Shown: positions 4,276 through 14,929 of the stretch, piece after piece
How positions within the stretch are numbered: position 1 is the first letter of the stretch
Layout of the letters: every line of letters starts with the position of its first letter
Assembly: GCA_963741515.1 (NCBI GenBank)
Contig: CAVUIA010000004.1
Coordinates: forward strand, 67 to 64,066
From: an uncultured bacterium
GTDB lineage: Bacteria; Desulfobacterota; Deferrimicrobia; Deferrimicrobiales; Deferrimicrobiaceae
Direction of reading: 5' to 3'
DNA: 64,000 nucleotides
Notes under the pieces: generated by a model
Databases searched by the model: none
The model's input: only the letters and a program-made list of their open reading frames with translations
What the model was told of the DNA's origin: nothing
Program-made: the position numbers and the translations under genes

Positions 4276-4578
4276 TCACACCGTTTGCGCGTCGATCTCG
4301 TCGTACTCCGCATATGTCCCGATGAACCGGATAAAGACGACCCGGTACGGGTAATTGATCCATGCGACGATCCGAAACTTGTTCCCGGCGATGTTGAAGA
4401 CCACCCTTCCGCCCTTAAGAAAACTGGCTTTCGCGAAGTCGGCCTTCACGTCCGCCGGGGAGGCCTAGTCCGCCTTCAATACATGCCGGTACCACGACAG
4501 GGTCGGTTCGCGGGCATCCATGTTCGACGAGTCATCCTCCCAGACCTTTTTCAGCGTTGAAAGGGCGATGACCCGCAT
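4276..4578 (-). pseudogene. higB: HigB/RelE-family toxin with an in-frame TAG at a conserved Trp codon
   Basis: Translation MRVIALSTLKKVWEDDSSNMDAREPTLSWYRHVLKAD*ASPADVKADFAKASFLKGGRVVFNIAGNKFRIVAWINYPYRVVFIRFIGTYAEYDEIDAQTV. The amber codon is plus-strand cta at 4465-4467. Homologues have W (AEW) at this position. Confidence 0.65.
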
Positions 4579-4688
4579 GAGAGGAGTTAGGTCCCATTTG
4601 GGGACTAACGCAAGTTTTGGGGGAGGCGGTGGGAATCGGGTTCCTCCGGGTTCCATCTTTCCTTCATTGCTGTGGATAAAAATAGCGA

Positions 4689-4719
4689 TTGACTGCAAGT
4701 GAGAACTATTCCTATATTG
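4689..4719 (+). promoter_or_regulatory. putative sigma70-type promoter (TTGACT ... TATATT) with flanking GAACTAT direct repeats, upstream of the Fur-family gene
   Basis: ttgact at 4689-4694 and tatatt at 4714-4719. gaactat occurs at 4703 and 4719. Spacing implies a short or leaderless transcript. Confidence 0.35.
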
Positions 4720-4724
4720 GAACT

Positions 4725-5159
4725 ATGCCGATGGAACGGGGAGAAGCGGAAAAGATCCTGCGCGAGCAGGGAACGAGGGTCACCCCGCAGCGGGTGGCGA
4801 TCCTCCGGGCCGTGGAGAGTTCCGGCAGCCATCCCGACGCCGATGCCGTCTACAGGCAGGTTGCCATGGAGCATCCGCACATCTCGCGGGATACGGTCTA
4901 CCGGACCCTTTCCATGATGGAAGAGAAAAAGATCATCGGGTCGGTCCTGTCCGTCGGGCACTCGAAAAGGTACGACCCGATCACCTCCAGGCACCACCAC
5001 CTGGTCTGCATCCGGTGCAGGAAAATACTGGATTTCAACTCGAAGGAGTTCGACCGCCTGGATCCTCCGGCAAGCATGGTCTCCCGGTTCCAGGTGCTGC
5101 GAACGACCGTGCAGGTGGAAGGATTGTGCGAGGAATGCCGGAACGGAAAGAAGCCGTAG
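4725..5159 (+). CDS. Fur-family transcriptional regulator, likely peroxide-responsive (PerR-like) given the adjacent katG
   Basis: Fur-family fold. HHHLVCIRCRKILDF ... C-x-x-C (CEEC) metal sites. Confidence 0.8.
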   Translation: MPMERGEAEKILREQGTRVTPQRVAILRAVESSGSHPDADAVYRQVAMEHPHISRDTVYRTLSMMEEKKIIGSVLSVGHSKRYDPITSRHHHLVCIRCRKILDFNSKEFDRLDPPASMVSRFQVLRTTVQVEGLCEECRNGKKP

Positions 5160-5321
5160 GAAGGCATATTTTTTTCTTTGCATATAGGAAAGGGTCCGAT
5201 TTAGGTAGGTATCCGATATCCGTTCAAGGAGGTGATTTCGATAAAATGATTTCGTCGACCCGAATTATTTGACCGCCCCCAGGCAACTTCACCATCGGAA
5301 CCAGACGAAAGGAGAGAACAC

Positions 5322-7517
5322 ATGTCGATGGAAAAAAAGTCCCCCTTCCTGCACCCGGCCGGCGGCGGCACGTCGATCCGGGATTGGTGGCCGGATCAGC
5401 TGAACCTGAAGATCCTGCACCAGCACTCACCCCTGTCCGATCCCATGGGTAAAGACTTCAACTACGCCGAAGAGTTCAAGAGCCTCGACCTGAAGGCCGT
5501 GAAGAAGGATCTCCAGGCGCTGATGACCAACTCGCAGGACTGGTGGCCGGCGGATTGGGGCCACTACGGGGGGCTCTTCATCCGGATGGCGTGGCACAGC
5601 GCCGGAACCTACCGCACCGGCGACGGCCGCGGCGGCGCCGGTTCCGGCCAGCAGCGCTTCGCGCCCCTCAACAGCTGGCCCGACAACGTGAATCTCGACA
5701 AGGCGCGCCGGCTGCTCTGGCCGATCAAGCAGAAGTACGGCCGGAAATTATCCTGGGCCGACCTCCTGGTCCTCGCGGGCAACGTCGCCCTGGAATCGAT
5801 GGGATTCAAGACGTTCGGTTTCGCCGGCGGGCGGGAGGATGCCTGGGAGCCGGACGAGGACGTCTACTGGGGTTCCGAAAAAGAATGGCTGGCCACCAGC
5901 GACAAGCCCGAGAGCCGCTACAGCGGCGACCGGGACCTGGAAAATCCCCTGGCGGCCGTGCAGATGGGCCTGATCTACGTCAACCCGGAAGGCCCGGACG
6001 GCAACCCGGATCCGGTTGCTTCGGGCCGCGACGTCCGGGAGACCTTCGCGCGCATGGCGATGAACGACGAAGAGACCGTCGCGCTGGTCGCCGGCGGGCA
6101 CACGTTCGGCAAGTGCCACGGCGCAGGCCCCGCCACGCATGTGGGACCGGAACCCGAAGCCGCTCCCCTTGAAGCGCAGGGGCTTGGGTGGATCAGCAGT
6201 TTCCGCAGCGGCAAAGGCGGCGACACGATCAGCAGCGGCATCGAGGGCGCCTGGAAGGCGAACCCGACCACAGTGGGATATGGGCTATTTGAAGGTACTG
6301 TTCAAATACGAGTGGGAGCTGGTCAAGAGCCCGGCCGGCGCGAATCAGTGGCTGGCCAAGGATGTGGCCGACGAGGACATGGTGGTCGACGCCCACGACC
6401 CGTCGAAGAAGCGCAGGCCGATGATGACGACGGCGGACCTCTCGTTGCGCTTCGACCCGATCTACGAGCCGATCTCACGGCGCTACCTGCAGAACCCCGT
6501 GGAATTCGCGGACGCGTTCGCCCGGGCGTGGTTCAAGCTGACGCACCGCGATATGGGTCCGCGCGCACGCTATCTCGGCCCGGAGGTTCCCGCCGAAGAG
6601 CTCATCTGGCAGGACCCCATCCCCGCGGTCGATCACAAGCTGATCGATGAGAAGGACATCGCCTCCCTCAAAGGCAAGATCCTGGCGTCGGGACTGACCA
6701 TCCCCCAGCTGGTGTCGACCGCCTGGGCGTCGGCGTCCACCTTCCGCGGCTCCGACAAGCGCGGCGGTGCGAACGGCGCGCGCATTCGCCTCGCGCCGCA
6801 AAAGGACTGGGAAGGTCAACCAGCCGGCCGAACTGGCGAACGTGCTGAAAACTCTCGAAGGGATCCAGAGCCAGTTCAACGGCGCGGCCAAAGGCGGCAA
6901 GAAGGTCTCCCTTGCCGACCTGATCGTCCTGGCGGGTTGCGCGGGCGTCGAGCAGGCCGCGAAGAAGGCCGGTCACGACGTGACGGTTCCCTTCACCCCG
7001 GGACGCATGGATGCCTCGCAGGAGCAGACCGATCCGGTCTCCTTCGCCGTGCTCGAGCCGGTCGCCGACGGCTTCCGCAACTACCTCAAGGGCAAATACT
7101 CCGTATCGGCCGAGACGTTGCTGGTCGACAAGGCGCAACTGCTGACGCTGACCGCGCCGGAGATGACGGTGCTCGTCGGCGGCATGCGCGTCTTGAACGC
7201 CAACTTCGGACAGTCCCCGCACGGCGTCTTCACCAAGCGGCCGGAGGCGCTGACCAACGATTTCTTCGTGAACCTGCTCGACATGCGCACGGAGTGGAAG
7301 GCGGTCTCGGACGACAAGGACGTGTTCGAAGGGCGCGATCGCGAAATCGGGCGAGCTCAAGTGGACCGGCACGCGTGTCGATCTCGTCTTCGGTTCGAAC
7401 TCCCAGCTCCGGCCCCTGGCGGAAGTTTATGGAAGTTCGGACGGGCAGGAGAAGCTGGTCCGGGATTTCGTCGCGGCCTGGACCAAGGTGATGAACCTCG
7501 ACCGATTCGACCTATAG
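5322..7517 (+). CDS. katG: catalase-peroxidase KatG, spread over three frames (shifts near 6273, 6813, 7343)
   Basis: N-terminus [19 protein letters not shown], the heme-peroxidase [11 protein letters not shown] motif and the C-terminal domain. Continuity across ORFs 5322-6650, 6139-7491, 6767-7627 and a final frame ending in DRFDL* at 7515-7517. Confidence 0.85.
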
Positions 7518-13551: not shown

Positions 13552-14516
13552 GACCTGTCGTTTCTCGGCGCGCGCCGACGCTCCAGCTTGGCGTTCGACA
13601 CGGGAATCTGGCTCAGGTCGAAGGGCGTCTTCTGGTACACCGAATAATTGAGCCAGTTCGAATACAGGAGATGCGCGTGGGAGCGCCAGCCCATCTCCGG
13701 CTCCTTCGAGGGGTCGTCGCCCGGGAAATAACCGGCCGGCGGGGCGATCGGGAGGCCCTTGCCCCTGTCCCGGTCGAATTCCGACTTGAGGGTGAGGCGG
13801 TCGTATTCCGGGTGGCCGAACACGAAGATCATCCTCTCGTCCGTCGACGAAACCATGTACACCCCGGCCGTATCCGAAACGGCCAGCATCTTGAGCCCCG
13901 GATTCCTGCGGATATCGCTTTCCAATACCTCCGTGTTCCGCGAATGCGGCGCCAGGAAGGAATCGTCGAATCCGCGCAGGATCGGCTCGAGCGGCTCGAG
14001 CACCTTGTGGCGGAACAGGCCGGACATCTTGGCTTCCAGCGGCCGCTTGGGAATCCCGTAATGATGGTAAAGACCGGCCTGGGCGCCCCAGCAGATGTGG
14101 AGCGTCGACCAGACGTTGGTCCGGCTCCAGTCCATGAGGCGGACGAGTTCCGGCCAGTAATCCACCTCCTCGAAGGGAAGGGTCTCCACCGGCGCCCCGG
14201 TGACGATCAGGCCGTCGAAACGCTCGTCCAGGACCTGTTCGAAGGGGGCGTAGAAGGCTTCCAGGTGCGCGGCCGAGGTGTTCTTCGACGCATGGCTGCC
14301 CATGCGGATCAGGCGGATTTCCACCTGCAGCGGGGTGTTTCCAAGGAGGCGGAGCAGCTGGGTCTCGGTGGCGATCTTGGTGGGCATGAGGTTGAGCACG
14401 GCGATCCGCAGCGGCCGGATGTCCTGGTGGACCGCGCGTTCGTCGATCATCACGAAGATATTCTCTTCTTCGAGCGTCCTGCGGGCGGGAAGGTCGTTCG
14501 GAATGCGTACGGGCAT
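13548..14516 (-). CDS. metA: homoserine O-acyltransferase MetA
   Basis: [23 protein letters not shown]... is the classic MetA N-terminus. GGAGGA RBS. The stop overlaps the Rrf2 start. Confidence 0.85.
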
Positions 14517-14701
14517 TTTGTCCTCCTCGCGATACACTACCAAAACGGTTGCAATAGTGTCAAGCCGCGACATCCTCTCGCGGCGGCGATTCGCTCCCTG
14601 CTCGATGGTGCGAAACACCCGGCGCTCGCCGGCGTCGCTCTTGCGGGGTTGCCCTGCCCGGGCGAGGCGGCCGACGCGTAATTCATACTTAATATATAGA
14701 G

Positions 14702-14730
14702 TATATAGTTTATTGCTTTTGAGATGTCAA
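14702..14730 (-). promoter_or_regulatory. strong sigma70-type promoter (TTGACA-17-TATATA) for the metA-rrf2-cysK-metY operon
   Basis: RC of 14725-14730 is TTGACA and RC of 14702-14707 is TATATA. Lies in an AT-rich patch and is followed by a GC-rich leader of about 190 nt. Confidence 0.55.
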
Positions 14731-14737
14731 CCTTTTA

Positions 14738-14863
14738 TTAACCCCATTCTCTCGGGTATATCCGGACGATTATTTTTTCATTAAAAACAGGAGCTTCTGT
14801 TTCGACGTGCGACGAGTCATCCTCCCAGAACTTCTTCAGCGTTGAAAGGGCGATGACCGGCAT
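14738..14863 (-). pseudogene. higB-like toxin 5' fragment; the first ~19 codons are homologous to higB at 4578, then the ORF runs into AT-rich DNA
   Basis: MPVIALSTLKKFWEDDSSHVETEAP... compared with MRVIALSTLKKVWEDDSSNMDAREP. About 60 nt are about 85% identical at DNA level to 4522-4586. Confidence 0.55.
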
Positions 14864-14929
14864 GAGAAGCTGTAAGGTTTTTGTCGGTATGGCGACGAAT
14901 CAGAAAACGCACTCCTGGAGGTCACGAAA

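Follow-up and report, generated by a model that had tools for sequence, protein, structure and literature searches.

The window analysed here, a 64,000-nt stretch from an uncultured bacterium of the Deferrimicrobiaceae (NCBI GenBank assembly GCA_963741515.1, contig CAVUIA010000004.1), contains the 5' end of the toxin gene higB twice, on either side of a block of perR, katG and cysteine/methionine biosynthesis genes. The question raised by this locus is whether the two copies delimit an inserted or excisable block, as had been proposed from the DNA letters alone, or whether the second copy has another origin. Analysis of the window and of related contigs revealed that copy 1 is part of a type II HigB/HigA toxin-antitoxin (TA) cassette, resident at this site and decaying in this genome. 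For copy 2 the best explanation, on balance, is a non-functional scar of 61 bp: the 5' end of the resident higB was partially copied within the locus, and the copy marks the exact point at which illegitimate recombination fused the metA upstream region with a trx-dsbD module.

A repeat search of the window identified direct repeats of 66 nt at 4517-4582 and 14802-14867, with 60 of the 66 bases (91%) identical and a start-to-start distance of 10,285 bp. Among the two-copy repeats of the window, the higB pair is the sole long, high-identity family. Comparison of the copy 2 region with the window by blastn gave a 61-nt core (4522-4582 against 14807-14867) in which 57 positions are identical (93.4%, E=2e-21), the runner-up match having an E value of 0.25. 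The original prediction that a higB 5' segment recurs in the same orientation, on the minus strand in both cases, is hence confirmed, and the similarity is stronger than the about 85% identity given there, the measured values being 91-93%. Both copies represent higB codons 1-19, with the ATG at 4578 and 14863; the N-terminal reading is MRVIALSTLKKVWEDDSSN... for copy 1 and MPVIALSTLKKFWEDDSSH... for copy 2, and the longest perfect match between the copies is 24 nt. Copy 1 covers positions -4 to about +62 of higB and lies within the full-length resident gene, as seen by repeat search, blastn and translation. The repeat homology reaches just 4-5 nt 5' of the ATG, and no Shine-Dalgarno sequence is found on the coding (minus) strand within these 4-5 nt. 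The segment was thus rightly described as the start of higB but not as including its ribosome-binding site, since the 'gaggag' in question sits on the opposite strand.

Copy 2 (14802..14867, minus strand, core 14807-14867) is an orphan patch without a promoter upstream and without higB sequence downstream. Its homology to higB is limited to positions -5 to +57. A HigB profile of 120 homologs aligned with it over residues 1 to about 19-27 and found nothing more in any frame of 14400-15000, consistent with the earlier description of copy 2 as a truncated higB 5' fragment, and the protein read from it has no Pfam match. The stretch where the two readings part (SSNMDAREP and SSHVETEAP), previously taken as divergence between paralogs, merely shows that homology ends at codon 19. 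The higB promoter/operator, of which 36-51 nt are common to copy 1 and the related contigs L081, L082, L083 and L177, is absent 5' of copy 2. No other higB or higA fragments were found in the window by blastn. A weak match at 63814-63987 (E=0.002) was considered as a higB/higA piece and discarded because its translation is unlike HigB; the AT-rich stretch next to copy 2 was considered as the decayed remainder of higB, from a resemblance seen by eye (VFN..IV..YP), and this was rejected by a search with the HigB hidden Markov model.

Analysis of the sequence to the right of copy 2 revealed a sharp boundary. The trx promoter region (14869..14929, plus strand) is conserved and resembles promoters of the extracytoplasmic function (ECF) sigma type, with the pattern GCTGTAAGGTTTTTGTCGG.ATGGCGAC.AATC (or GCTGTAAGGTTTTTGTCGG..GGCGAC.AATC); it is followed on the right flank by a trx-like gene (14930-15322, plus strand) and a dsbD_TM/ccdA-like gene (15326-16063, plus strand). 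Five independent trx-dsbD relatives (L084, L087, L089/L090, L181; 79-84% protein identity) begin to align abruptly at 14869, with 100% identity over the first ~19 nt, and do not align to the left of it. All trx relatives except L089 have a divergently transcribed gene cluster left of trx, which, where the contig is long enough, comprises small-protein-MbnB-HvfC-(DoxX)-ECF sigma-anti-sigma-AhpC; L181 ends too early to reveal anything past the beginning of the divergent gene, and L089 has an IS3-family transposase directly 5' of trx. No part of the window contains the divergent MbnB-HvfC-DoxX-ECF sigma cluster. Because this cluster is missing and the homology ends at 14869, a rearrangement breakpoint is placed immediately 5' of the trx promoter. 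As a separate observation on these promoters, in L084, L087, L090 and L181 the trx side and the side of the MbnB/DUF692, HvfC/DUF2063 cluster both carry a TGTAAG motif; the window keeps the trx-side promoter alone and has no local sigma factor.

On the other side, homology to the metA upstream region of a close relative (L175) ends at about 14805. The patch 14807-14867 fills the exact gap (14806-14868) between this end and the trx-side breakpoint (14868/14869), and the fragment therefore lies exactly between blocks of independent ancestry, the left one homologous to L175 and the right one to L084, L087, L090 and L181. Microhomology at both joins is 0-2 nt. The patch sits between the divergent metA and trx promoters and has no promoter of its own.

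The close relative is the metagenome-assembled genome (MAG) 'Deltaproteobacteria bacterium' GCA_014860285.1, contig JACZKB010000043.1, which was found through the 90%-identity cluster lists of MetA and HigB; its DNA was used as L175 and L177, with L176 and L178 as the Logan copies. Scans of genome and metagenome contigs with MetA gave nothing closer than 73% identity. The genes shared with the relative (L175, L177) are 92-95% identical to the window at the nucleotide level. Read in the minus-strand orientation of the window, the relative has the AT-rich promoter, metA, an rrf2 remnant, cysK, metY and Rrf2, then extra genes before metB, and after it thiI (an additional gene), cysE, Rrf2, an additional 133-aa gene, katG, perR, higB and higA. 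In the relative higB is intact, higA encodes 124 aa and katG 731 aa, and no second higB fragment was found there by blastn-short. The segment common to the window and the relative is 4063-14805, with copy 1 inside it, and the relative's genes flanking the shared segment (DoxX, 137-aa, 178-aa helix-turn-helix (HTH) and 133-aa genes) are absent throughout the window. Since the relative has the same block beside an intact higBA, the block and higBA were already neighbours before the two lineages diverged. Judged from this gene order, the perR-katG-cys/met-metA block is ancestral and is no repeat-bounded island.

These results bear directly on the model proposed earlier, in which a higB gene beside trx was split by AT-rich DNA or by the 10.2-kb block, and direct repeats bound the block and permit its excision. 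This model accounts for the direct repeats that flank the block and for the AT-rich DNA that abuts the fragment; however, block and AT-rich promoter are both found in the relative, where higB occurs once and the fragment is missing. An interrupted gene would, moreover, still have its higB promoter, whereas copy 2 has none, and perfect identity between the copies extends over at most 24 nt. Furthermore, no recombinase, integrase or transposase was found by Pfam among the long open reading frames (ORFs) of 4.6-14.6 kb, whose matches were confined to FUR, peroxidase, Rrf2, SATase, Cys_Met_Meta_PP, PALP and HTS. We therefore regard the model as most improbable, and excision through the repeats as unlikely, given also the cys/met biosynthesis genes inside the block. 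Campbell-type integration, in which a circle would have brought in a higB 5' segment, was considered and dropped because it predicts an upstream copy that keeps the chromosomal higB promoter, which copy 2 does not have.

The AT-rich DNA itself is the distal metA promoter region (14610..14805, minus strand), which shows 82% identity with the relative (L175/L176) as far as about 14805. It contains a near-consensus minus-strand promoter (-35 TTGACA at 14730-14725, 17-nt spacer, -10 TATATA at 14707-14702), conserved in the relative, and a palindromic AT-rich operator-like sequence at 14685-14704. The claim that this DNA supplies the metA operon promoter is thus upheld. The claim that a toxin gene was disrupted by its insertion is not, since the same region occurs 5' of metA in L175/L176, where no higB fragment is present; the AT-rich DNA is regulatory DNA native to the metA operon of the clade.

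Copy 1 is the toxin gene of the resident cassette. This higB (4276..4578, minus strand) has 100 codons and, with codon 38 read as W, matches HigB_toxin PF09907 over residues 24-95 (Pfam, E=1.3e-28); thousands of 100-aa proteins of the HigB family share 70-90% identity with its product, and P0001 shares 90%. Codon 38 (4465-4467) is an in-frame TAG, which is TGG in relatives L081 and L177, and the gene is a pseudogene. An intact translatable toxin ORF is hence absent, as copy 1 carries TAG38 and copy 2 just 19 homologous codons. The antitoxin gene higA' (4064..4261, minus strand) retains codons 1-66 of about 124, 79-84% identical to HigA of L082 and L083, and its HTH half is deleted; no further higA piece representing this half was found in the window by blastn. 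Homology with the higA genes of relatives ends at 4063. The stop codon 2 nt away belongs to an RNase II family gene (2389..4060, plus strand; RNB and C-terminal S1 domains), the left flank, which is not common to the window and the relative.

Upstream of higB lies a predicted promoter/operator (4579..4629, minus strand) with a TTGCGT -35 box and an imperfect palindrome, GTTAGTCCC..GGGACCTAAC (GTTAGTCCC..GGGACTAAC). It is conserved in L081, L082 and L083, which are unrelated contexts, and in the positional ortholog L177. The -10 box is degraded in the window (TAACTC, compared with TATACT or TATGCT in relatives). As this box lies 5-6 nt 5' of the ATG, a leaderless transcript is predicted, and the higB mRNA is probably leaderless. 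The FUR-family gene perR (4725..5159, plus strand) is divergent from higB. The question of consensus errors, considered below, does not affect the verdict on the cassette, because TAG38 is a substitution and higA is cut at a structural breakpoint.

Comparison of the 61-nt core among four sequences revealed that copy 2 matches L081 at 59 positions, and L177 and copy 1 at 57 each. Copy 1 has three private substitutions (AAA, GTC, AAC) and copy 2 one (CGG->CCG, R2P); except for R2P, copy 2 represents the inferred ancestral state. L081 lies at the node of the comparison, the topology of which is an unresolved star. The WEDDSS[NH] motif, located in the hypervariable stretch of the family, is common to copy 1, copy 2, L081 and L177, and among the 120 homologs listed it occurs only in P0001/L081 and its 90%-identity cluster, which includes HigB P0248 of the relative. 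Because copy 2 lacks the private changes of copy 1, the patch is not a recent copy of today's copy 1. Copy 2 had been called a diverged paralog and no recent duplication; the latter holds in that the copy is not very recent (four differences in 61 nt, none of the three private substitutions), while the former does not. As far as these substitutions indicate, the patch may either have been copied earlier from the resident gene or stem from a second, L081-like cassette.

The second of these sources leads to another explanation, namely that copy 2 is the last remnant of an independently acquired L081-like higBA cassette that stood between the metA upstream region and trx and was eroded from both sides by two deletions or rearrangements. 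Its closeness to L081 and lack of copy 1's private changes agree with this, as does the mobility of the family, near-identical cassettes being present in the unrelated contexts L081, L082 and L083, with plasmid occurrences counted too; the region is also full of broken genes and indels. On the other hand, members of the same rare sub-clade would have to land twice no more than 10.3 kb apart in the same orientation, two independent truncations leaving 61 nt would be required, and the relative shows no cassette at the metA-upstream site. Taken together, we consider this explanation possible but rather unlikely. A plasmid search with the AT-rich region plus the patch gave no match, a plasmid search with the cassette gave only distant HigB/regulator matches, and a scan of viral contigs for the 24-mer shared by the copies gave no match.

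A local copy is favoured because the two sequences, both of one rare sub-clade, are in direct orientation and lie 10.3 kb apart. In this reading of the patch as a local copy, the HigBA cassette was resident beside perR before the split of this lineage and its nearest relative, and illegitimate recombination would have joined the metA upstream region (to 14805) with the trx-dsbD module (from 14869). The 61 nt may have arrived by either of two routes. In the first, a tandem duplication extending from higB codon 19/20 to 14805 would make the 14805|14807 junction, and the second copy would then be truncated 61 nt in. In the second, a single template switch would copy 61 nt from 10.3 kb away into the new metA-upstream/trx junction. 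Both routes are equally compatible with the anatomy.

Several points weigh against a local copy. The candidate donor, 10,285 bp distant and similarly oriented, matches at 57 of 61 positions; however, either the resident copy or an L081-like cassette is a possible source, and an independent cassette of that kind would fit the absence from copy 2 of all three private substitutions of copy 1 and its 59/61 match to L081. An intermediate state, for example a duplication in tandem or a trx/metA site with an intact cassette, was found in no relative. For bacteria there is little documentation of template-switch insertions of ~60 nt, and the literature found on 'filler DNA' concerns mainly plants and yeast.

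Templated 'filler' insertions are known from eukaryotic end-joining and from microhomology-mediated break-induced replication (MMBIR) and fork stalling and template switching (FoSTeS) events. A more specific proposal, which we advance only tentatively and hold to be doubtful, is that the patch records one complex template-switch event of the MMBIR/FoSTeS kind, or a short-fragment capture in end-joining, in an uncultivated deltaproteobacterial lineage. The event would begin upstream of metA with a jump to the higB 5' end 10.3 kb off, continue with the copying of 61 nt, and end with a jump to the trx promoter. The patch begins 1-2 nt past the -10 box, near the start of the predicted leaderless higB transcript, so that an RNA- or cDNA-templated origin is just conceivable.

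A function of the patch, either as a plus-strand antisense RNA to the higB 5' end or as a 41-codon ORF (14863 to 14741), is scarcely to be expected. A weak plus-strand promoter-like site lies upstream (14682-14709, 9 of 12 matches), and complementarity between the patch and the start of the resident higB mRNA is 93%. However, the relative lacks the patch, the resident higB has itself already become a pseudogene, the ORF has neither promoter nor Shine-Dalgarno sequence and its product has no family match. A search of 14300-15000 against Rfam gave no RNA family even at E<=10. The same search bears on a riboswitch in the 192-nt metA leader, a candidate that was dropped, as the leader is not unusually structured (z=-0.72) and has no Rfam match.

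An assembly artefact, in the form of a chimera through a shared higB k-mer path or of a patch that is a consensus error, is very unlikely. The source contig is metagenome-assembled, and its first 16 kb contain many single-base insertions that are conceivably consensus errors. Nevertheless, a repeat-mediated join would leave higB running on at one side at least, and neither side does; copy 2 differs from copy 1 at four sites; and both halves of the window have 'Deltaproteobacteria bacterium' relatives with ~90% protein identity.

The broken genes of this part of the window were compared with intact homologs. In katG (5322..7517, plus strand) there are three +1 insertions (6272, 6814, 7347) relative to the intact 731-aa gene of the relative; they add up to a net +3, the frame is restored at the end and no other damage is visible. 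By this comparison katG may be either a fresh pseudogene or a site of local consensus errors. In cysK a single-base insertion at 12183, compared with L175 and L179, lies ~12 codons before the stop and gives an ORF of 369 aa, against 309 aa in relatives, that overlaps metY. The dsbD_TM/ccdA-like gene shows two frame changes, near 15497 and at 15700-15737, relative to intact 243-aa homologs in L084 and L090, and the RNB domain of the RNase II gene is scattered over at least three frames. In a P-type ATPase gene (218-2530, minus strand) 69 of 175 positions of the C-terminal domain are found, which suggests a frameshift near position 300. Every resolvable indel in the first 16 kb is an insertion of one base, so that local consensus error is suspected, whereas ten long genes at 25-51 kb have complete Pfam domains, and this uneven distribution of broken genes argues for real decay.

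The gene content reported earlier for the block was correct by Pfam: FUR-family perR, katG (split over three frames), three Rrf2 genes, cysE, two Cys_Met_Meta_PP genes, cysK (PALP) and metA (HTS). The cys/met cluster (7669..14516) consists of Rrf2 (7669-8148), cysE (about 8162-9079), a Cys_Met_Meta_PP gene (about 9142-10281) and Rrf2 (10358-10810) on the plus strand, and of metY-like (10824-12113), cysK (11966-13075), Rrf2 (13072-13551) and metA (13548-14516) on the minus strand; it was also compared with L175, L177 and L179. Each of the three Rrf2 regulators follows a different AT-rich palindrome-like sequence (sites 7600-7668, 10290-10357, 14525-14562 and 14685-14730). Outside its own clade, metA-cysK-metY (10824-14516; compared with L001 and L002) has its best matches in MAGs of Spirochaetota/Treponemataceae (MetY 77-78%, MetA 70-73%), and these matches hint at past horizontal transfer of the operon.

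The metA promoters are arranged in tandem, the distal one as in L175 and the proximal one as in L179. The predicted proximal promoter/operator (14525..14562, minus strand; TTGACA..TAGTGT with the partial palindrome ACCGTTTTGGT) is common to L179/L180 and absent from L175; in L179 the operator is a perfect palindrome, TACTACCGTTTTGGTAGTA. This third relative (L179/L180, 90% identity) shares just the metA-rrf2-cysK-metY operon, from 14558 on, with the proximal promoter/operator. Beyond about 14805, the relative L175 runs into unrelated DNA with a tRNA-like 3' fragment, AT-rich DNA, an HTH gene and DoxX, and the comparison suggests that the metA-upstream boundary is a rearrangement hot spot. At 2600-2760 of L175, 5' of metA, tRNA-like 3'-end fragments (..GTTCGACTCCCACAGGCCCGA.. 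and ..CCCCCGGCACCA) occur in very AT-rich DNA beside the HTH gene; from these fragments the site is possibly an old integration site, and ARAGORN found no tRNA gene in this region of the relative.

Three further features of the window were recorded. A 32-nt motif, CCGGAATATTACCCGCAAAACCGGAAT, at 16238-16269 in the dsbD-cfa spacer is 94% shared with 6392-6423 of L177, an intergenic region that the window lacks; the motif could represent a small repeat or a site bound by a regulator. The tmRNA gene (33667-34017, minus strand) has a 30-nt inverted copy (97% complementary) of its 3' end 44 nt beyond the gene (33587-33616 and 33661-33690); a remnant of an att site and a terminator-like hairpin are both conceivable. 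At 58552-58693, inside a long minus-strand ORF (57604-60408), the 18-nt unit GACCGGCGCGGCGGCCTG is repeated about 6-8 times in tandem.

With regard to its significance, the locus indicates that a short toxin-gene fragment can mimic a pair of att-type repeats and suggest a 'mobile block' that does not exist. One close relative sufficed to resolve it, and the import beyond annotation is little. As a gene relic at a rearrangement junction the patch is ordinary and adds one more case to a known kind; if the single-event template switch were true, it would be a tidy natural bacterial example of a templated insertion at such a junction.

Three known kinds of system come closest to the locus. As in a HigB/HigA type II TA system, the copy 1 toxin has the PF09907 domain, its gene lies 5' of the N-terminal part of its antitoxin partner, and a predicted palindromic promoter/operator precedes it; unlike such a system, this one has a nonsense codon within the toxin gene, a degraded -10 box and an antitoxin without the C-terminal half, while copy 2, with just 19 codons, is not a gene. 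As in islands bounded by attL and attR, two ~60-bp direct repeats derived from the end of a gene enclose a block of ~10 kb; here, however, there is no integrase, the relative keeps the block with one repeat only, and the synteny boundaries 4063 and 14805 do not match the repeats. There is also a likeness to rearrangement-junction relics, such as duplication-truncation scars, and to templated insertions, since a 61-nt copy of a nearby sequence lies in direct orientation exactly between unrelated synteny blocks, with 0-2 nt of microhomology. It differs from them in that templated insertions, a proposed mechanism here, are described mainly in eukaryotes, and in that the patch is 93%, not 100%, identical to the nearby copy, which indicates that the event was not recent.

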